A DNA stretch of 63,070 nucleotides, filler included, from Catajapyx aquilonaris (lineage: Eukaryota): the NCBI GenBank assembly GCA_000934665.2. It is 3 parts of 3 records of this genome, joined end to end, with 100 filler letters (N's around TTAATTAATTAA, not from the genome) between each part and the next. Parts side by side here need not be neighbours in the genome. Positions count along the whole stretch, not along the records: positions 1 to 20,898 come from JYFJ02006169.1; 2 more parts are not named here. The stretch is one strand, 5' to 3'. This document shows, one piece after another, positions 450 to 61,832 of the stretch; the stretch's first letter is position 1, and each line of letters starts with the position of its first letter. The notes under the pieces are model-generated. The model saw only the letters and a list, made by a program, of their open reading frames with translations. It had not been told where the DNA came from and did not search any database. Both the position numbers and the translations under genes were made by a program.

Positions 450-450
<1 letters not shown>

Positions 451-632
451 TAGTGGACCCGTAGCCAAAATTTGGCAAAACATAATACTATCAGGATGAC
501 AATGGGAATGAAAACATGCGGCAAATACTCATTTTATTTCAAACAACAATGCAAGCAACAATGTTAAAACAATTGGGATATTGCGGGATATAGGGAAACG
601 GGAAGTTGGGGGCAGTAACATGTCAGGAGTAA

Positions 633-1552
633 TTACATACGGGAATTGTACCTGAAATTTGTGGCAAAACCAATACCACCTCTAATTTCAAAATTCATGT
701 CAAATTTTTGTAATGCATTTATCAAATCATCACGTTCATTATTTCTTGTCATAAATTGCTTGTTGCTTTTCAAAGACACAAACTGTAAATACTTACTACT
801 TGACCCCAAAATAACAGGAATTACAGCTTTTGTTAAGTTGTTGTCAGTTAGCATTAGTGTGTGCAGATTGTCAAATTTCATGTATTTTAAAATTTGGGTG
901 CAAAAAAAGGAAAAAAAAAAACAGAAAATAGGTTCATTTCGACTATCTCCCAGGCTATATGTTGAAATGCAGAGGGACTTAGAGACAAATTGTATCCTAT
1001 GCACTGATTTGAAGCGATATCTAGTGACTTTAGATTTGGCATAATCTTCTCTATAGCTGGCAAGTTCAACCCCATGCATAGAGATATTCAGATGCTCCAG
1101 GAGTGGAGAATGTTGAATTTGGGTTCAAGATGTCTTGGGCAATGAAAGGGGATCTTAGCTTTCCAAGTGGTGGGATAGAATAGGGACTTATGAGACTCCT
1201 TTCTGTGTGACTCTGTCGCTGATATCTTCAAGAACTTCCAAGTCCCTCATGACGTTTAGACTGTATATCAATTGACTGTACCAGTTAGCTGAGAGATGAA
1301 TATATCCTTTTCTCACAATCTCAGTGCAATTGGGATGTAATGCATGGCTTATGTTGAAACATTCCTCCAACCGTGCACACAGTATCCCCCAAATCTCTGC
1401 CACATATTCATTTGCTATTGTAATTGGGATCCTAGCGACGTACTGGGATATCTCTCTTTCTCTCTGCTTCTTTCGCATGCTTCTACTGCATTTGCAGCCA
1501 GGGTTCGCAGGCTCAAAATCTCCAGACTTACAGGCTGCTTAATTCTTGGCAT
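633..1552 (-). pseudogene. Frameshifted BC-box/LRR (ZYG11/PRAME-like architecture) gene inside Helitron copy 1
   Basis: An ATG at 1552 follows a 53-nt GT-AG intron (1608-1556) and reads MPRIKQPVSLEILSLRTLAANA. Downstream frames give YVARIPITIANEYVAEI and the LRR units SPLLEHLNIS, MPNLKSLDIASN, FDNLHTLMLTDNNL and YLQFVSLKSN. Several frameshifts and stops interrupt it. Confidence 0.65.
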
Positions 1553-2039
1553 GATCTGTGGAATGATTTAAATTCCAATATGTTTGTAGATGTAGAAAGA
1601 ATACTCACATAAATGTTTATTGTATTTGATGAGGGATTGATGTGTCAGGATTTCTGATGATGTGAAGGAGGAAGTCTAGTTTTCTAGGTGTGCAAAAAAC
1701 GTCAAACAATGTAAATCCTCAGTGTTGTCACGTTTACAAAGATTCGACTTTGTCCATGCACACAGCATACGTGGTGTTTTGGATTCTCATGTGATAGGCT
1801 ATTTATTGTATATAGATAGAATATTTTATTTACATGAGTGAAAATTTTATATATTAGAAAGGCGGAAGGAATACTCACATAAATTTTCTTGATTTTGATG
1901 AAAAGTTGAGGTGTTAAAAAGATTAATGATGAGGTGGAGGGAGTGTAGTTCTTTTTGTTTGCAAAGAATTTCAAACAATATAAATACACAGTGTTATGAC
2001 ATATCCAAGGTTTCCACTTGGACGATGATGTACATGTAC

Positions 2040-2557: not shown

Positions 2558-4090
2558 CTAGCGCACCCGTAGCCAAAATTTGGCAAAACCTGCAATGAGG
2601 AAGACAATGGTAATGGAAAAATTGAATGAGAGGGCTCGCGGAGTGACAACTAAGAAATAGAGTATAGCTGGTCGTAAGACGGGGGTTGAGAAATTGAGTG
2701 GCATTGACTCAATGGACATACTGTACACGTCCTGAATCGGTCGTGAGAGAAGTTTTCATAAAACCTCCCGATATACAACATTGTGTGCAAACACTCTGTT
2801 GTTGGAGAGCAATGTTCCGTGTTGAGCAGTAGGAGTAGTGAACACTTTGACCTGACTTGGGTTGCGAGACCGGGACAGTGCCACATGCAGCTGGCCATGA
2901 TTGGGAGAAGACAGGTTCATCCAGGGAAATGATAACGTGCTCATCTGGCCGGGCGAGTTATTGTTGATCGCCATGGCATAGGCTGGGATGACATTATGTA
3001 AATGAACATATATAAGACTTTTGGATCCGGATCCAGCAGTGCCAGCAGGCTATGATTAAGGCTAATAATAATAGCTGATAATAGCTGATACGGGCATATT
3101 TGAGTGACGGGGCAACATGAGGGATGGAGCGAGTTGCCCTTTGTGTAGGTAATAATGCTGTATGGCTTTATGATACTGTCATCTGTTATTGGGCGACACG
3201 GTGGCGGAGGGGTTAGCGCCTCAGCCTTTCACCTCTAAGGTCCCGAGTTCGATCCCCGGATCGGACAGAGTATATGCTTATGTGGATATAGTTTCGATGG
3301 GTTCTCTCCGTGTTCGCGTGGGTTCTCCCGTTTCCTCTCACAATCAAAATCCATCACAGCAAAGGAAATGATTGAAGTCGGTCAATTAAAAGATTATCCC
3401 CTAAAAAGCTGAAGGAGGCTTATCACGGGGTTATATCCATTATCTCCCCTGTCATCTGTTGTGGCCCCGCCAGGCAGGGTTCGTCGCCCTGCAGGATATT
3501 TTTAGGTAATGCGGAGAGGAAGCGGAGCTGGGCGATTATTGTGGGTTTCGTATCCGCAACATTTACAGTACTGTCCGTCTTGTGGCGGCGGAGGCCAACG
3601 GACGTTATTGTGGCTTTACCAACCTCCAATCCCCTGCTGATCCCACCGCTGATATCTTGTTTGCTTGCTCCGGGAGGTTCGTGCTACGCCGCCAAATAAG
3701 TCGCAATGGTTTACTCTAAGCTAAGCTATATCCGCTGAAAATCATAAAAGATGTTAGATCCGGATCCAAGATGGCGGCATAGTTACAAAGTGGGGCTGAA
3801 AGAAGCAGCGTATATGACAGCTTTCTGAATATTCTGAGGCTCAGATTGAATCAGTTGGCAGACCTGTATTGCCGGGAAAGGAAATAGGTGGCGGTTAGGA
3901 CTTTTGGCGGGAAGGCACGGGAAGGGAAAGCGGCGGCCTGAAGAATTAGTACCGTACTGACCAAAAGGTGGCAGCAGCACTCCCTTGGCCGCCGCGGGAG
4001 TGCTGCCACCTTTTCCGTCACGGCACTACTTCTTCGGGCAGCAACATCTGGAGCGTTCCCGTCGAGTCTTCCAGACAAGGCTATTATTAT
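2558..4090 (-). mobile_element. Non-autonomous Helitron, copy 2
   Basis: 3' hairpin GCCAAATTTTGGC plus CTAG (2558-2561). Helicase tail HGQLHVALSRSRNPSQVKV...HNVVYREVL (2756-2974). 3863-3917 matches 32072-32126 of copy 3. The 5' end is ATAATAATAGCCTTGTCTGGAA at 4090-4069. Confidence 0.85.
3191..3460 (+). mobile_element. tRNA-derived SINE (family D) nested in Helitron copy 2
   Basis: A box TGGCGGAGGGG and B box GTTCGATCC, followed by a GGGTTCTC..GTTTCCTC core-like motif and a CCCCTAAAAAGC tail motif. The 3' boundary is approximate. Confidence 0.75.
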
Positions 4091-15520: not shown

Positions 15521-18500
15521 CTAGCATAAGCTACACCGCTTGGACATGCTATTATGAATTGCCGCCTGGCCCTTGGCCTGCCCATTTCCAATTGTATGCT
15601 GCCCATTGGCCTGCCCATTTGCCTGTGGTGGCTGTGCTAGCTGAGTCCGGATGCCATTGGCGGTGGGACCAGCCACCGCATCAACGCTCTTGGATGACCC
15701 CCGGTCACCCTGATTCTGGTTTATGTCAGTGCCTTTCTCCCACTCGCTGATGTGGCATTGGAACGCCTCACACAAAGGTTGGTCCTTCAGGGAGCCACAG
15801 GAATGGGCCTTGTAAAGCCGCAGGCTTGGCAGACTAAACCGCCCCTTTCGAATATCCAGGTACTTGGACAGCTTGTGCTTCTTACCATCCTTGGGGGTGT
15901 TTTTGGGTGGTTTGCCACTGGTGGTGGCATCGACCAGTTTTGTATCCAGCTTGATGGAATTAACATTTATGGTGATGCTTGCTGTGACGGTAGGACCCTC
16001 GGTGGGTAACCCTGCCTCATTTTCCTTCTCCTCTTCACCACCACTACAATCGCTCTGAGACACAATTCGTGAAAGCTGGCCCCGAACAAATGTCTTGGCA
16101 GCTGGAAGGGTGGATTTACTCTCATACAAGAGGTTGGCAACTGTAGTTTCCCCCTCCCTTGGTTCTAGATTATCAATCTCACTGATGCGGTTTAGGGACT
16201 GACTCTCCCGCAGCCGTGTCTCAGTGACTTTCTCTCTGCCAAATGGGCAGGCGCTATGCCTGCGTCCACCCACTCCTGTTGGCTTGTTATCCTCGTCTTG
16301 TCGACCAGAGTTATTCCGTGATGGCCACTCTCCTTGACTAAACCCGCCAGGTCCATGGCCGCTCCTATTGCCACCTCCATCACCTCCTCCACCACTACCT
16401 CCACCACCACCCCCTCCTCCATCTCCTCCGCCACCCCCACCTCCGCCCCCACCCCCTCCGCCACCACCACCAGGATCTTGCGAATCACTCGAATCATCAT
16501 GTGAGTCTCGCTTTGGTAAATTTTTCAGCTTGCCCTGACGCTTCTTACGTGAGTCTGTGTCATCATCACTTGCATCAGAACTGCTGCAGCTGGCAGTGCG
16601 GTGTTTGGCAAACTTCTGCCTCTGCTCATACCTGCGAAGCAGTGCAGGGGATGTCATTGCGTGCTGGTGGTGATGGTGGTGATGGTGGTGACGTCGGGTA
16701 GGAAAAGCAGTTGAAGGCCCTGTTCCAACTGCTGCAAATGTTTCTGACTCACCCTCACCCTCTTCAAAAATCTCATTTAGGGTCAGCTGGGGTGAACTGT
16801 GAACTACATGCAAACGGCGATTAGGCCCTGGCAAAGTCTTAAACTTTCCCGGAAGTGGCGAGGAAGGCGAAGATGGTGGAGGAGATGGGCTGGATGGCGA
16901 GGAGATCCTTGGAGAGAAGCTGGACGCTGACACAGGTGAGGAGGGGCTGAGAGGCGCACGATTCCCAACTGGACTGGTTGGCCCTCTTGCAGCCACCACA
17001 CCACTCTCTGGAGTAGACGGTGATGTGTGTGATGATGATCCTGATTTTGATCCCCTCCTCTGACTGCTCCTCAGTCCAATCTTGGATGTGGTTGGAAATG
17101 GGGCAGGTGGACGGAACTCGTCCTCAGCCTCCTGGCTGAGCTGTTCCTTGGAGCCCAGCTTCAGAAAGCCCTTATCCAGAGGCTTTAAGTCAAGGACCAT
17201 GTTCCCCTGCTGACTGCGTAAACCATACATGTGCCGGCATGGAGATGTGGTGGTAGTCAGCAATGGCAAGCCCAAGCGAGGCCTGTCTGGCAAGCACTCC
17301 TCGAGGTCCTCCTCCTCCTCCTTGACTATGCTGCACTTTCGAGGGCGAGGACTGTCCTTCTGAAAATTATTCACTTGTTACACCTCCATGGTGATATCCA
17401 ATCAACCACAAGCACAGTCAGCATGCAGCTCTGTTCAAGTACGTCACAAAAGCATGCAGTTCCAAGCAACACAACCACTGAAAAGCAACCTCCACCTTTC
17501 CATCCATAATGTGATAAGTTGGCACCACAATATCAACACACAGTGCTGCCATCAAATTGTAACCTTAAGCACGTAACCTTAGTGCACAAGTCACTCTAGT
17601 TGTAACCACCATCTAAGTGCACAAGGCAGGTGAAAAGAAGCAAGCCCATGGAATTCATACCTGGCATGGTATCAGCAGGTGTGTCTCGGACCCAAGCAAG
17701 GATTTCTCTGACAAGGGAACCATTGGATTGTCTATAAGTGCCGCAACAGTGTTCGTTGATGATGATTGTCCATCAAACGTGAAATCGTCCTTCCTCATAT
17801 CGGACCGTTGCTCTGGCATGCTGCATATATTGATGTATGTCAGGACAGCTATTAACTTCAAGAACCTTGTACAACTGGACAATTGATCTGCAACATTGCA
17901 TATTACAGTGCTGACCCAATAAAAGGTTTCAGTCTAGTTTTTTAAATATGGACGTTTTGAACTCCACAAAACTAACTCAGAATGTGCACAAATATGCAAT
18001 AAAATATTAGTTGACCATGAAAAATTGAAACTCAACTGTTCATAACTCATCCATCCCACATTATCAGAGCATCTAGGAGATTACCCACTTACCAAGGAGA
18101 CATTGGAGACAGGTCTGGTCGGAATTGACCCGCATTAATTAATTGCGCTTGCTGTTGTCGTTGCGCTCGCAACTTCCGTTCAGCCAGTAGGAAGTACGTT
18201 GCTGTGATGTGATTGTAATCGTTGCGGTCTAATGCACTGTTGATTTAAATTAATACATTGAAGATTTATTGGCATACAAGCAACACAAAGTTAATGCACT
18301 GACTTCATTACATACTGATTTTAAGAACATGACACCTTAAAAATTGACCTTCATCTACCCCTGCTACAAAAATTATGATAAAAATTCCTGCACATTCCAT
18401 CTAACTCTTGCAGGCCTTTTAAGTGAGTTGCAAATGGGCAATATTTCAACCCCTGTATCTCAGTTGATTGCCAATATTTTGCAATTTTAGATTTCATTTT

Positions 18501-20230
18501 TTCACCCATACTTTTATGGACCTCTTTCACAAAAAAACTTCATACCAGAAGCTAAATAGGTGTCCTAAAGGGGAGGCATGATGGTTACGCCACTGGCCAG
18601 CAAAGCGGGAGGCCGGGATTCAAATCCCGTCCCCATCACCTCTGCTTGGCCGGGTCTTTTCCCGCTTTTCACCTGACATGCCGGGGCAGAATTGCACTCC
18701 CTACTCTGCTCAGGGCCAGGAGAAAAGGCCTGGTGTTTAAAGATTGTCAGAAATGACTACCGCACAGCGCCCTCCCTTGGGAACCTGCCCTTCCCCCATA
18801 AAATGGCTCCACCCTATCACAGGGTAAATATTCAAATATTCAAATAGGTGTCCTAAATGTGTCTTATTTGTTAGCATATTTCAGCCACATTTAAAAATTA
18901 TTTCATCCACACATGTACCAAAAATTTGTTCAAATACAAAAACTGCACTATTTTTTTGAAATGGCTTCCAGGGTGCAATGTTAGGGGAAAATCACAAAAT
19001 AATTTCAGCAGGAAATTTTGGCCTTATTAAAAAGATTTGTCAGCATTATTATGATAAAGCCCAAGTTCCTACCAACACAATTTGATACTACAGGCACTTA
19101 CTTCAAGATCTCTTCTTTGGAAGCTATGGAACCATTCACCATCTTCTGGATGATGTGTGCATGGTCTTCCTCGCTTAGGTGCTCCCTGGACACCAATGGC
19201 AGGTAGTCAGCAGGCTGAATAAGAACACCTTCTGATAGCCACACATCATTAGCAAGTTCTTCTATAGTTGCACGTTTCTCAGGGTCACGAATGAGCATCC
19301 TTTCAATTAATCTGAAATGAATGGGATGTTACCTGTGGCACACACAAGGTCAAATGTGCTGGTGTAGTTACCTGCGGCATGCATTTGATACGTAAGGAGG
19401 AATGGAGTATTTACAGTCCATTATCATGGTCAATGTCTCACTGTCATTGGCCTCTTGAAAGGGTGCCCGTCCACAAACCAGCATGAACAGGATAACACCC
19501 AGTGACCAAACATCTGAAAAATAACGTGAAAGATGTAGCATTTGTAAGATATTCAAAATTGCTGGTGACTCACCAACAGCAGGAGCATCATAAGAGTCAC
19601 CCAGAAGAATCTCTGGGGCAGAATAAGCGAGGGATCCACAGGAAGTCTCTAACTTCTGTCCCGGACAGTAGCGATTGCTAAACCCAAAATCAGTCAGTTT
19701 CACCATGCCTAGTTTCTCAAAGAAAACAACATTTTCAGGTTTGAGATCACGATGCACCACGTGGAGCTTGTGACAGTAGGAGATGGCATTAACTATCTGA
19801 CGAAAGTATTTTCGGGCCATCTCTTCATCCAGCCCCTTTTCGTGCTTCATGATGTAATCATACAAGTCACCACCATCACCCAGTTCTAGGATCAGGTACA
19901 GCTTCGTCTGTGTGTCAATCACTTCATAGAGCCGCACCACATTTGGGTGCTGCACCAGTTTCATACAACGAACTTCTTGGACCAAATGCTCATCATCCAA
20001 CTTTGTCTTGTCAATCACCTAAAATCAATGCATCATTTCAGCAAGCCACTGTTACCTGGTATTTCTTGTGAAGCTAATAACAAACCTACCTTGACGGCCA
20101 CCTTCTCTCCTGTAAAGACATGTCGTGCCAGCTTGACAACGGCAAAGTGGCCTCGTCCCAGTGTCTCCTCCAAGTCATACAGACCAGCAATTTTCCCATC
20201 GTATGTAGTGGGTTTCAGCGATTTACTCAT
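15521..20230 (-). CDS. SNRK: SNF-related serine/threonine kinase (exons 20230-20090, 20018-19574, 19513-19372, 19311-19102, 18236-18093, 17820-17661, 17359-15521)
   Basis: [64 protein letters not shown] and the UBA segment [18 protein letters not shown] are all present. All introns are GT-AG and phase-compatible. Confidence 0.95.
18570..18841 (+). mobile_element. tRNA-derived SINE (family E) in an SNRK intron
   Basis: B-box-like GATTCAAATCCC. 16-bp TSD AAATAGGTGTCCTAAA at 18554-18569 and 18842-18857. Confidence 0.85.
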
Positions 20231-31680: not shown

Positions 31681-31750
<70 letters not shown>

Positions 31751-32866
31751 CGCCTTGTCTGGAACGATTGACGTCACTCTCACGTCACTCACGTAATGGC
31801 CCGTAGTGACGTCTACCACCTACGCCACCTACCGGTCTTGGCGGAAAGCGCTTAGGAACTGTCGTGACTGTGACTGCTGCCATCTTCCGCCACCTTCCGC
31901 ACTAAATAATTTTACCGTCCGCCCAACGAGATAGAATCAGGTAGAGGCCGTAAAGGTCACGTGATCTTTGGCGTCCATGCCACTTCACGGATCCGACACT
32001 AATCACGGCACTAAGTCACGACTAAGTCACGGCACTAAATCACGGCACTAATTCATCGGGCCATATTTTTCCCTTCCCGCCAAAAGTCCTAACTGCCACC
32101 TATTTTGTTTCCCGCCAATACAGGCCCCGGGTGAGTGCTGCCACCTTCTCATCACGACACCAGGCCGGGGGTAGGGGGCGGCGGGTTGTGGGTTGGGCGG
32201 GGTGGGTCAGTGGCTCACTTCTCACTGCGCAGTGGAGAGTATGGTCGCTTTATTTCTGTCGGTGGTCAGTACCTTACGTCCTCACGACCTGCTCAGTGCC
32301 TCATATCCTCACAACCCGCACAATGGACGAGGAGGAGGATCCCATTGCTAGAAAGCGTCGGATGGCTAAGGCACGCAAGGCTAGATGGCTAGCAAAGCTA
32401 AGTCAGGAGTCCCTGGACAGAATTCGTCAGGCAGACGCTGCAGCTCATCGCTTAGCACGCCATCCTCTAACCCAATCCATTCCCGACGAAGCTATTCTTT
32501 TTCTGGAGGCCCGAGTCACATGGCCAGCTGTATGTGGCACTGTCCCGGTCTCGCAACCCAAGTCAGGTCAAAGTATTCACTACTCCTACTGCTCAACAAG
32601 GAACATTGCTTTCCAACAACAGAGCAGTCTTTACACAGAATGTTGTATATCGCGAGGTTTTATGAAAAAGGCTTTTCTCATGTCCGACTCAAGAAGTATA
32701 GCCTACAGTATGTCCACTGATTCAATGCCACTAAAATTTTCAACCCCGTCTTACGACCAGATATACGCTATTTCTTAGTTGTCACTCCGAGAGGCCTCTC
32801 ATCCCATTTTTTCATTCCCATTGTCCTCATTGCAGATTTTGCCAAATTTTGGCTACGGGTCCGCTA

Positions 32867-32923
<57 letters not shown>

Positions 32924-56400: not shown

Positions 56401-57716
56401 CGTTAGTTTCTAGGTCCAGCTCTTTATACTGCTGTTGTGTCCTTTTCTCTTGTGCACTTGCGGTTGGTTTCAATGCTCTAAGGAACTTTCCCTGTGCTTT
56501 TCTTTTTTTTTTGTCTAGAGGGAGAGAAAGGGATATATATATATTTGCAATTTTCTTTTTGGGGTTGTTCATATGGAATGGTTAAATTTGTTACAGCAGG
56601 CGACTGAGCGTTTGCGGTAACAAATCTTGCTGCTTCATTTGAACAGTGTAATACTACAGACGTCCCGTTTTGCTCAAAATCAGACGCCATCGGCTGGAGC
56701 CAGGAATGAGGCAAAAAATTTGTCAGAGTGAAGAATTTATGCTTCGGTTATTTCCAAAGGGGTTGTGGGCGATTTTTTATTTATTTTTTGCTCATATTCC
56801 CCACCAATTTTTGCACATTTCATTTTAGCAATCCCGTCTCCTCATTAGTGTTTCGCCGAGCTGGAATACTTGTACAGGCTTCCCTCTTTTTTCCTTTCAA
56901 AGTGGGCCACCCCGCTACCATCCCCCCTCTTCCTCCGCTCTACTCCCATCCAACTTCCACCCGAACTCAAGGACTTTTTTGGTTGCACCTGTAGATGAAA
57001 AGGCTCGTCTAAAGCAACAACAATGAGAAGAGAAGAAGCATACATCCCAGCCCCACCAATCCCGATAACTTAATCCCTCCTCCTTTTTAAACAGAGAAAA
57101 ACTAGGCTTCTCCATGCCGTTTAGGTGGCCGTAGTTGACTATGGCTTATGTACTAAAGTATGTTCTGTATTATCGGTGAAACTCAAATACAGAAAACTGT
57201 GTACATTATTGTGGATTAGCAGCTTTCATTCATTCACCTTCCACATGCAGCGCATTTTTTGGTGTAAAGCAAGCGGGTTATTCTCCACATGGAGCAGTGA
57301 CGTTGGACGCAGTCCTATCTGTAATGAAATCCCAAGTTGGTAAGTCTCTGGATTACTCACCATCGGATTGCAACTCACTAGACAATAATTATTTTATTGC
57401 ACTTTATCATTTAACGGATTTGCTATAGTCATAGTTGTCTTGGTACAATACATCGTGCATGACATGTATTTTTGTGAGCCTGTAACTTATTGTGTGTCCA
57501 TAACTTAATGGGTGACATTCAAGAAAAAGGGTGTCAATCTTAATGTATAATGCACAACTTACACCATTCATTTCTTAAGGAGGTGTGACTGATGCGCAGG
57601 CAATGACAAAACATCAACCTTGAGGTGGAGAGAAAAATGACTTATTACTGTCGGATGTGGGCACAAATGATTTATTATGATGGCAAGAAAGAAGAAGGAA
57701 GGCAGTGTGCAGGAAA

Positions 57717-59176
57717 ATGTTTCCTGTTCAGGACGTGTTTTGGGCCTTCTCGCCCTTGGCCGGATATTCGGCCATCTTCGGATTGTGGACATGTCCACTG
57801 AGTCCCAGAAGAGAGTCGTTACGTCACATGTGGCCATTCGCTGTCAATGTGGTCATTTTTGTGGTCGGGTATTTCATAACCACTTGGATGAGACTGTCCG
57901 GACAAAAGGATAAGACCAGATCAAGTACCAACGAGATGGCAAGTTTTTACTTGTACAGAGCCGTTAATCTGATGCCTCTGATCAGTCTGCTGCTTCTCGC
58001 AAAGCAACGAGATAAAATCAGGCGGACATTTAAGAAACTGCACACTTTGGATGGGATTTGTGGAGATTTGGAGGTGAACCACTCTCTTCGGAAATTGTCG
58101 TGGAAAATTGTGCTAGTCTCTCTGGTAGACACATTGGCATTGACAGTGGGAAGTGGATATTATTTTTGCAAAGACTTTCAAATTACAGGGCTGATCCTTA
58201 CATTTGCCTTTTTTCACTTTATGTCTATCCGTGACCTGGCTGCAGGTCAACTTCTCTTTTTTGTGTCTGCTATCGGACGACGGTTTCAGCATGCTAGCGA
58301 AGAACTCGCGACGACATGCGCCTCGCTCCAAAAAGTGTTTCACTCTTCCCGAAATGAAGAAATGGCCAGGCCTGCAGATATTTGCAAGGCCACATTTGCC
58401 AAACCTGGCAAAGTTTTCTTGGATCTTTATGAGCTGAGTGCAGATGTCAACAAGACGTTTGGAATATCGACATGCATCACGTATTTGGGCATCTGCCTGG
58501 AGATTTTGTCAGCATTGTTTTTCACGATTGACAGTTGGGGAAAGGCTCCGCTCACACCCATAATGATCTTTTGTGTGAATGTAACTCTAAACATATTGAC
58601 TGTGGTCACTTACACCACTGCAATATACAATCAGAGCGAAACAGTAAGTAGTCTTTATAGTTTCCATTTTTTCCAGACTGCAAGCCACAGTCATCAGGAT
58701 ATGATCGTATGCACTGCTGTTTTACACCAAAAGCAAACAATAATTGTTCCCAAAATTCTTTGCAGACCACTCAAGCTCTGGATTGCCTGATGAAAATTCG
58801 CAAATGGAATTTGAGTCCAGAGTCTCAAGAGCAGGTCAGAAATTTCCATTCAATGCCTTTCCATTTGCATCAATACTCTTTATGCTCATAACAGGTCCAG
58901 ACCTTGGTCGAAAGGATGCTGGGCCCTCCAGTCCAGTTCACCGCAGCCAACTTCTTCACCATCAACAGAGGGCTACTCACCTCTGTAAGTGCACTTGCAA
59001 CACTTGCGCATTCTTGAGGCACAATTGGCCTGAGGGTGCATTGATCTTTTTTGCAGATCGCAGCATTTGTCACTACTTATCTGGTCATCCTGATTCAGTT
59101 CAGATCTGCTGAGAACACTACAACCTACAACAATTCCACGTTAACCTCTGTGGGAATTGGGGGCAGTAATGAATAA
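57717..59176 (+). CDS. Gustatory receptor (7tm_7 family), copy 1 (exons 57717-58643, 58766-58834, 58895-58984, 59057-59176)
   Basis: A long hydrophobic first exon, three phase-0 C-terminal introns, FTAANFFTINRGLL and the GR signature TYLVILIQF. Confidence 0.92.
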
Positions 59177-60446
59177 TTTGCTAATACCAGGTAATAATTG
59201 TTGGAGGGGGTCACCAGGATATGTGCTGAATGAAAAATCATTGAGGCTAGAGCATTCCACGTCAACTGACCCCCCTCGCCGACAAATCTTTTCCGATTTA
59301 GACCAAAACCGAGCATGTTGTACTACTCATGAACCTGACAAGGGACATTTACCGGCTGATAATGACAGATATTGATGCTAAGAGATGCTAATATATGATA
59401 ACCAAAAATGAAATATTTCGGGCTGAGGCCCATATTTGCAAAAATTATGAGGTCTTACATTGCCAAAAATAATAGTACATTTTCATACGCAGAACTACAC
59501 ATGTCACTCAACAACACACAAATGTTTCAGAGTTATTCAGGGAAATGTCATGGACAAAGTTCGTCAAGAATTCTGTTGTGTCATCAGTGCTGTAGCGCAA
59601 GACTTATTTAATTTCTGGGAAAAGGAAGAGGGTAATAAGACATCAACATTGTCACGTGGTGGCATGATTAGCACGGTTCTGACTAGTATTGTAATTTGGT
59701 TTTAAAAAATTGTTTTTTCCGAGGAAAATTGGTTTTTGTTTAGTTTTTTCCAAGACCCAGAATATTTGATGAAAAATCTACATATATTATTTACTTTCCA
59801 AATATTTTACATAGAAAATAATGAGATGAAACCTGTCGCATGAAATATTGCAATTTTTCTCATGTAAGCTCTGCCAACTTGTACACAAATGAAAAAGAAA
59901 AAAAAACTAATCATAAATTCTGGACATCACGATCGCTACTGCTTGTGCCACCATTTTTCGCTTTCCTTCCATGGAGCAGTGACGTTGTTGGATGCAGTCC
60001 TATCTGTGATAAAATCCCAAGTTGGTAAGTCTCTGGATTACTCGTCACCGGCGGATTGCAACTCACTAGACAGTAATATTATTCGATTGCACTTTATCAT
60101 TTAAGGGCTTGGCTATAGTCATAGTTGTTGTGGTACAATACATCATGCATTGGTACAATACATCATGCATGACATGTGACACCGCCTTGTTTTTGTGAGC
60201 CTGTTACTGGGTCCATAACTTAATGGGTGACATTCAGGAACATGTGTGTGACCTTCTGGCAAATGTCAATCTTAATGTATAATGCACAACTTACACCATC
60301 ATTTGCTAAGGAGGTGTCAGTGATGTGTATGCAATGACAAAACATAACGTGGAGGTGGAGAGAAAAATGCTTTATTACTGTCCGATGTGGACACAAATGA
60401 TTTATTATGGTGGCAAGAAAGAATAAGGAAGGCAGTGTGCAGGAAA

Positions 60447-61832
60447 ATGTTTCGCGTTCAGGACGCGCTTTGGTCCTTCTCTCCCTTGGCCAGATGTTCG
60501 GCCATCTTCGGGTTGTGGACATGTCCACTGCATCCCAGAAGAGAGTCATTGCTTCACCAGTGGCCACTGGCTGTCAATGTGGTCATTTTTGTGGTCGGGT
60601 ATTTTATATCCACTTGGACGCAGTTATACGCATCATTGACAATGGAAAAGTCAAATACCAGCATAGCTTCAGATTTTTATGTGCACAGGGCCATCCATCT
60701 GATTCCGTTCCTGAGCCTGCTGTTTCTCTCGAAACAACGAGGTAAAATCAGATACATACTGAGGAAACTGCAATCTTTGGACTGGACATGCGGAGACCTG
60801 GAGGTGAACCGCTCTCTTCGGAAATTGTCATGGAAAATTGTGCCGTTCTCTCTGGCACACACATTGGCGATTACGATGGTACAAGGCTATTATTTTTGGG
60901 TAAAATATCAAACTGCAGGGCTCATCCCAACACTTGCTGTCTTTCAATTTATGTCAATCCGTAACCTGGCTGCAGGTCAACTTCTCTTTTTCGCGTGTGC
61001 CATTGGCAGGAGGTTTCGGTTCATTTGTGAAGATATTGCGACAACATGCGCTTCGCTTCAAGAACTTTTTCCCTCTTACCGAGATGAAGAAACGGCCAGA
61101 CCTAAGTATGTTCGCAAGGCCACCTTTGCCAAACCTGGCAAAGTTTTCTTGGATCTTTATGAGTTGAGTGCAGATTTGAACAAGGTGTTTGGAATTTCAA
61201 CATGCGTCACGTACTTGGGTATCTGCCTGGAAATTGTATCAGCATTGTTTTTCGTGATTGACAATTGGGCAAGTGCTGGGCCCACACCCATAATTATATT
61301 TTCTTCGATTGTAACTCTAAACATATTGACTGTGACCATTTACACCTCTGCAATATACAGTCAGAGGGAAACAGTAAGTTGTTTCATCTCTTTTCGAACC
61401 GTAAGCCACATTGAGATATGATTTTATGCTGCACTGCTGTTTTACGCCATAAGCAAACAAAGATTGTTCCCAAAATTCATTGCAGCCTACTCAAACTCTG
61501 GATGCCCTGGTGAAAATTCGCAAATTGGACATGAGTCTGGACTCTCAGGAGCAGGTCAGGAATCGCCATTCACTGTCATTCCATTTGCATCAATTTATGC
61601 CCATAACAGGTCCGGACCCTGATCCAAAGGATGCTGGGTCCTCCAGTCCAGTTCACCGCAGCCAGCTTCTTCACCATCAACCGAGGGCTTCTCACCTCGG
61701 TAAGATTAGCACACTTGCATTACTTGGGCACTTTTGAGATGCACAGTAATTGGCCTCTCTTTGCAGATTGCGGGGACTGTCACTACTTATCTGATCATCC
61801 TGATTCAATTTAGGTCTGCCGAGAACACGTAG
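60447..61832 (+). CDS. Gustatory receptor (7tm_7 family), copy 2 (exons 60447-61373, 61486-61554, 61610-61699, 61767-61832)
   Basis: Tandem paralogue of copy 1 with the same intron positions and the signature TYLIILIQF. Confidence 0.92.

Follow-up and report, generated by a model that had tools for sequence, protein, structure and literature searches.

The stretch of DNA considered here raises the question of whether a transposon of the Helitron class took a second gene along with it and, if so, what kind of protein that gene encoded. The stretch, called the window below, is 63,070 nucleotides (nt) long, filler included, and comes from Catajapyx aquilonaris (assembly GCA_000934665.2); it consists of three parts of three records joined end to end, the first of which (positions 1 to 20,898) belongs to JYFJ02006169.1. 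Three Helitron copies were recognised in it, and the one at 450 to ~2487 (copy 1) is the subject of this analysis. An earlier interpretation, referred to as the sequence-only reading, had proposed that this Helitron family mobilises a captured gene for a leucine-rich repeat (LRR) protein with a BC-box, a putative Cullin-RING E3 substrate receptor. Copy 1 has homology to Helitron helicases, termini shared with the other copies and, between them, a sequence with coding-like openness that is broken by lesions. The explanation that we favour, with moderate confidence, is a dead Helitron whose extra LRR-like gene is an orphan, either accessory or captured.

According to this explanation, the interval from 450 to ~2487 on the minus strand would be one dead, internally deleted Helitron of canonical type lying in (AAT)n. 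Behind the remains of the helicase it would hold a second co-oriented gene, the leader of which would start in the helicase-tail region, followed by a probable 53-nt intron, ~300 codons and an AATAAA signal. As an accessory or captured gene it would have moved together with the element, its intron would have been spliced, and its product would have had an LRR fold.

Structure of copy 1 and the coding sequence within it

Read along the minus strand, from high to low coordinates, the parts of copy 1 follow each other in the order microsatellite, 5′ motif, helicase, units A and B, intron, open reading frame (ORF) and terminus:

2557-2488: (AAT)n microsatellite, upstream of the 5′ motif of copy 1
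2487-2469, minus: candidate 5′ terminus, GCCTTGTC..GGAACG, directly after (AAT)n, with ~120 nt between it and the helicase fragments
2346-2212 and 2210-2064, minus: two PIF1/Helitron helicase fragments
2063-1865, minus: unit A, consisting of helicase tail (..HNTVYLYCL..), leader and splice donor ATTTATGTGAGTATTC
1785-1595, minus: unit B, a tandem duplicate of unit A with degraded helicase tail, leader and donor
1608-1556, minus: candidate intron of 53 nt, GTGAGT...CCACAG, with the ATG 3 nt past its end
1552-633, minus: decayed ORF of ~300 codons, with the ATG at 1552-1550 and the stop codon TAA at 635-633
538-533, minus: AATAAA, 95 nt past the ORF stop and ~80 nt before the end of the element, a putative polyadenylation signal
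450-520, minus: Helitron 3′ terminus, the ~70-nt end common to copies 2 and 3
476-464, minus: palindrome GCCAAATTTTGGC within this terminus
453-450, minus: CTAG, then T at 449, then (TAA)n
355-449: (TAA)n/(ATT)n microsatellite directly adjoining the 3′ end, as also found after copies 2 and 3

The other two copies in the window are as follows:

2558-2992, minus: Helitron copy 2, with the helicase C-terminus (..HNVVYREVL and a stop codon), ~190 nt, the palindrome and CTAG at 2561-2558, without the extra gene
31750-32867, plus: Helitron copy 3, a deletion derivative of ~1.1 kb with CTAG at 32864-32867, without the extra gene

Copy 1 lies directly downstream of the 3′ end of copy 2, and in copy 3, which has both termini, the first ~46 residues of RepHel, the Rep-helicase protein of Helitrons, are fused to its ~48 C-terminal ones. 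Copy 3 itself is flanked by BRCT-domain exons of a host gene on the minus strand, at 26.5 kb and 36 kb.

The helicase part of copy 1 was recognised by two kinds of search. A 99-codon frame at 2043-2339 matched the Pfam family UvrD_C_2 (E 3.2e-5), and 63 of 118 candidates from a library of 5.8 billion protein clusters passed E ≤ 1e-3 with the helicase query, the best relative showing 84% identity across about half of the query; many of these relatives bear Helitron_like_N (PF14214) together with PIF1 (PF05970). Judged by its sequence, copy 1 has the PIF1-like RepHel helicase of canonical Helitrons (HLE1). When four full-length relatives were aligned by tblastn, 2346-2212 corresponded to residues 1160-1204 of P0007 (1480 amino acids, aa), the best single-frame alignment of 2210-2064 was with residues 1122-1170 of P0003, and a longer alignment placed 2309-2064 on residues 1356-1445 of P0007, 2210-2064 falling at approximately residues 1404-1445. 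Since the two fragments map to non-adjoining residues of the relatives, an internal deletion of the helicase is indicated. The Rep (HUH) nuclease part was not found in copy 1 by tblastn with the same four relatives, and without this domain the element would be unable to move by itself. A deletion derivative is the usual state of non-autonomous or dead Helitron copies.

The ends of copy 1 are those of its family. The last ~70 nt are common to all three copies in the window, with an invariant 13-nt palindrome and CTAG followed by T in each of them, so the 3′ end is of the canonical type: a CTRR-type end (CTAG), a palindrome upstream and T as the next nucleotide. In copy 1 the corresponding 3′ hairpin has a 5-bp stem and a folding energy of -4 kcal/mol (z -0.87 against shuffles). 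At the opposite side, the GCCTTGTC..GGAACG motif stands directly after (AAT)n at both copy 1 and copy 3 (31750-31766 in the latter), which suggests that it is the 5′ end of this Helitron family. The short match at 2469-2487 thus suggests a single, internally deleted element of ~2.0 kb that encloses the extra gene. Additionally, the terminus pattern gave no match in the metagenome and viral contigs searched, and no pieces of the ORF protein were found in the viral contigs searched. Three metagenome loci were set aside as chance, having only the seed octapeptide in common (a 22-residue match) and no match to any other piece.

An (AAT)n/(TAA)n repeat adjoins all three Helitron 3′ ends and both recognisable 5′ ends in the window, the microsatellites being located at 355-449, 2488-2557, 31683-31749 and 32868-32922. 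Targeting of this repeat by the family would account for this, as would seeding of the repeat by the ends of the element.

The ORF between the helicase and the terminus has its start codon (1552-1550) in an ATCATGC context, with ATC ATG at 1555-1550, and runs in frame f1 from 1552 to ~1451, in f0 to 1191, in f1 again at 1153-890 and finally in f0 at 896-636. Its coding character was assessed by dynamic programming, in which each stop codon or frame change costs 1. The minimum read-through cost of the 917-nt stretch 636-1552 was 3 on the minus strand and 6 on the opposite strand, and 1000 dinucleotide shuffles of the same stretch gave a mean cost of 9.9 (standard deviation 1.7) with a minimum of 5, none of them coming to 3 or less. 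Because shuffles never reached so low a cost, this stretch was once coding: it is a decayed coding sequence, a pseudogene in copy 1 with three to four frame-breaking lesions. Among segments of equal length from the window, 68 of 1130 had a cost of at most 3, and the best 40 of these 68 sit at long ORFs (large host exons) or over copy 3. The most sensible path through the ORF has four lesions, against three for the path of minimum cost:

1470-1445, minus: purine-rich run, frameshift from f1 to f0
1190-1188, minus: in-frame TAA ending the f0 segment, or a frameshift there
1090-1088, minus: in-frame TGA in the f1 segment, or a compensated pair of shifts
937-895, minus: T-rich tract, frameshift from f1 to f0

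A 43-nt GT..AG interval at 1196-1154 was considered as a second intron that would restore the frame; in view of its poor donor and acceptor and its very small length, it was taken as a lesion. Two long open frames of the minus strand and one of the plus strand (141 codons) coincide over 619-1124, an unusual finding in AT-rich DNA.

These results largely bear out the descriptive part of the sequence-only reading, which had placed a co-oriented gene of ~920 bp between the helicase remnant and the 3′ hairpin with CTAG and had called this copy frameshifted: the gene is read there with a cost of 3, it carries three to four lesions, and the coordinates and peptides quoted are correct, the N-terminal one being MPRIKQPVSLEILSLRTLAA and the other, YVARIPITIANEYVAEI, following in another frame after the frameshift in the purine run 1470-1445. 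The same reading had named a separate insertion with its own target-site duplication or poly(A) as the competing possibility; both marks were looked for and neither was found. There is no poly(A) tail and there are no bracketing direct repeats around the ORF, so it is no retrocopy with insertion marks of its own, and this origin was ruled out. A second copy of the ORF was not found inside the window.

Proposed attachment of the extra gene to the element

That the gene belongs to the Helitron is suggested by the arrangement of the locus: all parts of copy 1 are co-oriented, end motifs of the family type bracket the entire 2 kb, the splice donor belongs to a Helitron-derived sequence present twice, and the acceptor lies 3 nt before the ATG. 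The leader of unit A ends ATTTAT/GTGAGTATTC, and its tail frame is open to the donor in phase 0. Unit B, separated from unit A by ~80 nt, is 71% identical to it by blastn (169 of 251 aligned positions identical in the alignment), and no run identical in both units is longer than the donor block. The divergence of units A and B looks greater than the decay of the adjoining ORF would suggest.

The candidate intron, with its predicted splice junction at 1609/1555, was put forward in the sequence-only reading as a clean intron before the ATG. The GTGAGT...CCACAG sequence is indeed present; as evidence of splicing it is a consensus match only, the same layout of donor, acceptor and nearby ATG being seen at 3 of the 47 GTGAGT sites in the window. 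The public sequencing runs listed for this sequence were four DNA runs of one sample (shares 0.39-0.44), with no RNA run among them. The 53-nt interval 1608-1556 was probably used as an intron.

Several observations weigh against a single gene-carrying element. Copies 2 and 3 are without the gene, which is known from one copy, so its carriage by the element rests on one locus, and the earlier claim that the Helitron family as such carries it is not borne out by the other two copies in the window. Copy 1 resembles copies 2 and 3 in the helicase and the terminal ~70 nt only. Moreover, the 3′ hairpins of copies 1-3 are no stabler than those of shuffles (z -0.25 to -0.87), and a canonical 5′ TC with its A/TC junction is not visible at the 5′ end of copy 1.

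Some of these facts are what would be expected if the ORF were a host pseudogene, or one from another repeat, caught between two independent Helitron fragments, namely a truncated helicase and a solo 3′ end: the likeness to copies 2 and 3 covers just the last ~70 nt and the helicase, and the gene is missing in both of these copies. Units A and B cease to resemble each other 13 nt into the intron, which would place a junction with ORF-bearing DNA inside the putative intron itself. We nevertheless regard such a composite as unlikely, since all parts share one orientation, the 5′ and 3′ motifs of the family type bracket the 2 kb and each stands beside (AAT)n, the donor lies in a Helitron-derived leader with the acceptor 3 nt before the ATG, and neither an additional terminus nor target marks are seen between the parts.

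Alternatively, the LRR-like part could have been a C-terminal extension of RepHel, joined to it by splicing of the 53-nt intron. The tail frame of unit A has no stop codon where copies 2 and 3 and the relatives P0001, P0007, P0024 and P0042 end; it reads on through 34 further codons and reaches the donor in phase 0. The exon past the acceptor likewise starts with phase 0 of the ORF (ATC ATG), and in a multiple alignment the stop codon of copies 2 and 3 faces the donors of both units. The matching phase 0 at donor and acceptor means that a spliced RepHel extension could have been formed. At the same time, 34 open codons are estimated to occur by chance in about 1 of 8 cases at such a composition, the tail frame of unit B holds a stop codon and a 1-nt indel, and the extensions of the two units, with a DNA identity of 71%, share ~40% of their amino acids, as with neutral drift. 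Furthermore, an LRR tail was present in none of the 63 helicase relatives, and the context of the ATG is good for independent initiation. A fusion of this kind is therefore considered quite unlikely, and a separate gene within a dead Helitron is preferred.

The encoded protein

The assignment of the product to LRR proteins comes from several lines of sub-threshold similarity. LRR_4 ranks first or second among Pfam families for two separate pieces of the ORF (E 0.015-0.12); taken together, its matches have E-values of 0.015-0.25 and scores of 16.0, 12.1, 15.2 and 13.1 bits against a cutoff of 27, and LRR_6, for which the cutoff is 23.4, scores 13.5 and 12.9 bits. By ESM-Atlas features, the last 87 aa fall with clusters of LRR_6/LRR_1 (0.92-0.95), and LRR proteins make up all of the ten best named matches. 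By eye, the cores LKSLDI, IVEMNL, LHTLML and LQFVSL can be read with spacings of 29 and 26 residues. The C-terminal two thirds of the ORF appear weakly LRR-like, and an LRR identity of the protein is likely in our estimate; the label is plausible though it stays under every formal threshold. For an LRR protein, a role as a protein-binding adaptor is the most natural guess.

A number of results speak against this assignment. Every Pfam LRR score is under the gathering cutoff. The ESM tool carries the caution that a third of shuffled proteins reach a family agreement of 10/10 too. The strict LRR core occurs once in the ORF, the mean of shuffles being 0.94 and 3116 of 5000 shuffles reaching one, and the hydrophobic autocorrelation has no preferred lag at 18-35, hence no period of 20-30 residues. 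An AlphaFold single-sequence model of the last 87 residues had a mean predicted local distance difference test (pLDDT) score of 49.7, too low for a fold search, and the best LRR match of phmmer in the PDB had an E-value of 0.67 (LRRs of NLRP1 and TLR9, E 0.67-1.1). Searches for relatives ended negatively as well: the 90-aa N-terminal in-frame piece had no phmmer match at E ≤ 1e-3 among 1.84 billion representatives, none of 36 candidates passed for a 116-aa piece compared with proteins of 204-2000 aa, and the 301-residue single-frame read-through (X at stops) had 341 candidates among proteins of 165-527 aa, none of them at E ≤ 1. Note that E-value cut-offs at such library sizes miss weak relatives, that the host proteome is possibly absent from the libraries, and that the C-terminal part of the ORF was scored against proteins of at most 527 aa. 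The "at least four LRR units" of the sequence-only reading could not be upheld in the face of sub-threshold Pfam scores, one strict core and no period, the single ESM feature search being what supports LRR.

The N-terminal piece had no usable match by ESM features, and the last piece of the ORF matched nothing in the PDB by phmmer. A pepsin inhibitor, the only PDB match of the N-terminal piece (E 0.041), was judged to be chance, and an F-box was rejected, no Pfam family being obtained for the N-terminal pieces at E ≤ 1 / E ≤ 10.

The more specific proposal, that of a ubiquitin-ligase receptor, depends on two short motifs near the N-terminus:

1528-1499, minus: SLEILSLRTL, residues 9-18, a motif-level fit to the BC-box consensus
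1430-1404, minus: IPITIANEY, a motif-level fit to the Cul2-box consensus, in a frame other than that of the BC-box motif

The published forms, as given in PMC4878042, are (S,T,P)LXXX(C,S,A)XXX-phi for the BC-box and phi-PXX-phi-XXX-phi for the Cul2 box, and the same source describes the layout of PRAME as an N-terminal VHL box followed by LRRs. As the sequence-only reading had pointed out, the usual Cys of the BC-box is a Ser here; the fit itself stands, Ser being allowed by the consensus (PMC4878042), and the motif is a loose one. In the six-frame ORFs of the window the BC-box expression has 1.37 matches per 1000 residues, and the Cul2-box expression has about 2-4 matches per 1000 residues (1.99 in the six-frame ORFs of the window). 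A pair of these motifs within 40 residues was absent from 56,401 six-frame residues, and helicase proteins totalling 40,720 residues contained one. Since a frameshift parts the two motifs, their true spacing (~22 residues) is uncertain.

On this basis, it could be supposed that the ORF encoded an LRR substrate receptor with a VHL box (BC-box and Cul2 box), through which an active Helitron family gained access to the Elongin BC-Cul2 ligase of the host, for instance to have a host defence factor removed. SLEILSLRTL and IPITIANEY both fit the published consensus forms, an N-terminal VHL box before LRRs is the layout of PRAME (PMC4878042), the motif pair within 40 residues is rare, and Helitron-like elements are described as carrying OTU, FBA_3, UCH and Peptidase_C48 domains (PMC11417382). 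However, the motifs were picked after the sequence was seen and each is common, they stand in different frames in copy 1, the N-terminal piece is recognised neither by ESM features nor by Pfam, and the searches made detected no homology to PRAME, ZYG11, LRR-1 or another protein. The supposition is very unlikely in our judgement, and the function of a Cullin-RING adaptor is motif-level speculation. The ZYG11/ZER1/PRAME-type homology of the sequence-only reading thus found no counterpart in the protein searches, the PDB matches being at chance level and including no Cullin-RING ligase 2 (CRL2) receptor. In its widest form, in which an arthropod Helitron lineage would have encoded a VHL-box LRR protein, either as a downstream gene or spliced to RepHel, that recruited Elongin BC-Cul2 to a host target, the idea appears highly improbable; lentiviral Vif and adenoviral E4orf6 would be the model for such recruitment of a ligase by a Helitron protein.

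Finally, it has a near-negligible probability that the open frames arose by chance and were never a gene, for although no homologues were found and the two frames and the opposite-strand frame of 141 codons that are open over 619-1124 hint at a compositional effect, none of the 1000 shuffles came down to three lesions or fewer and their minimum was 5.

Surroundings, known systems and significance

Apart from the Helitron copies and the microsatellites, the following features were recorded in the window:

~3190-3300, minus: stretch just upstream of copy 2 that resembles, by reading, a short interspersed element (SINE) derived from tRNA, with a GGGGATCGAACTCGGGACC-type box
39.8-41.9 kb: vicinity in which a similar SINE-like stretch, by reading, seems to recur
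15521-20018, minus: protein-kinase gene (Pkinase, 5.7e-51), with a long 3′ exon of 618 codons that contains poly-His and a long poly-Gly run
57681-58790 and 60348-61421, plus: two tandem single-exon 7tm_7 chemosensory (gustatory-type) receptor ORFs (Pfam E-values 9.8e-16 and 6.7e-9), in keeping with an arthropod host

Helitrons pick up and carry extra genes, and since such carriage is already known, another dead copy with an orphan passenger would be ordinary: what is new at the locus is the passenger, the element being of a well-known kind. The nearest known systems are the HLE1 Helitrons with an RPA-like gene, which resemble copy 1 in their PIF1-type helicase, CTAG end, palindrome ~10 nt upstream and insertion before T, as well as in the extra co-oriented gene between RepHel and the 3′ terminus (PMC11417382). 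Copy 1 differs from them in that its gene has neither RPA nor another recognised domain, and from HLE1 in general by having no Rep, an internal deletion of the helicase and no canonical 5′ TC. The HELIANO survey lists 20 additional domains stably carried by Helitron-like elements, with RPA enriched downstream of RepHel in HLE1, and assigns four of the carried domains (OTU, FBA_3, UCH and Peptidase_C48) to the protein-degradation pathway (PMC11417382). Elements with these ubiquitin-related domains are a precedent for a stably carried protein-turnover module; their domains, however, are described as Pfam-detected (E ≤ 1e-3) in the majority of a family's copies, whereas here there is one copy, with no Pfam domain over the threshold.

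The words "LRR" and "leucine" have 0 occurrences in the text and Supplementary Table S11 of PMC11417382, and the available text of PMC12062965 presents Helitrons as regulatory elements beside F-box genes, not as carriers of them. No description of a Helitron-borne LRR or BC-box gene was found in the literature searched. The VHL-box LRR receptors of Cul2 ligases (PRAME and LRR-1, and ZYG11/ZER1 with a VHL box) are similar to the ORF product in the N-terminal motif pair with LRR-like sequence after it, and differ from it by showing no detectable sequence similarity and by the frameshift that parts the motifs in copy 1. With the viral BC-box hijackers (adenovirus E4orf6 and the Vif of bovine immunodeficiency virus, BIV; Cul2/Cul5), which are described as parasite-supplied substrate receptors for a host Elongin-Cullin-SOCS-box (ECS) ligase (PMC4878042), the likeness is purely conceptual, the present case being known from sequence alone.

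If intact copies of the gene lay always within these termini and their product bound Elongin C/Cul2, this would be a DNA transposon that brings its own ubiquitin-ligase adaptor, the first transposon-borne Cullin-RING substrate receptor of the VHL-box LRR type, and an instance of a counter-defence strategy that has thus far been documented for viruses.

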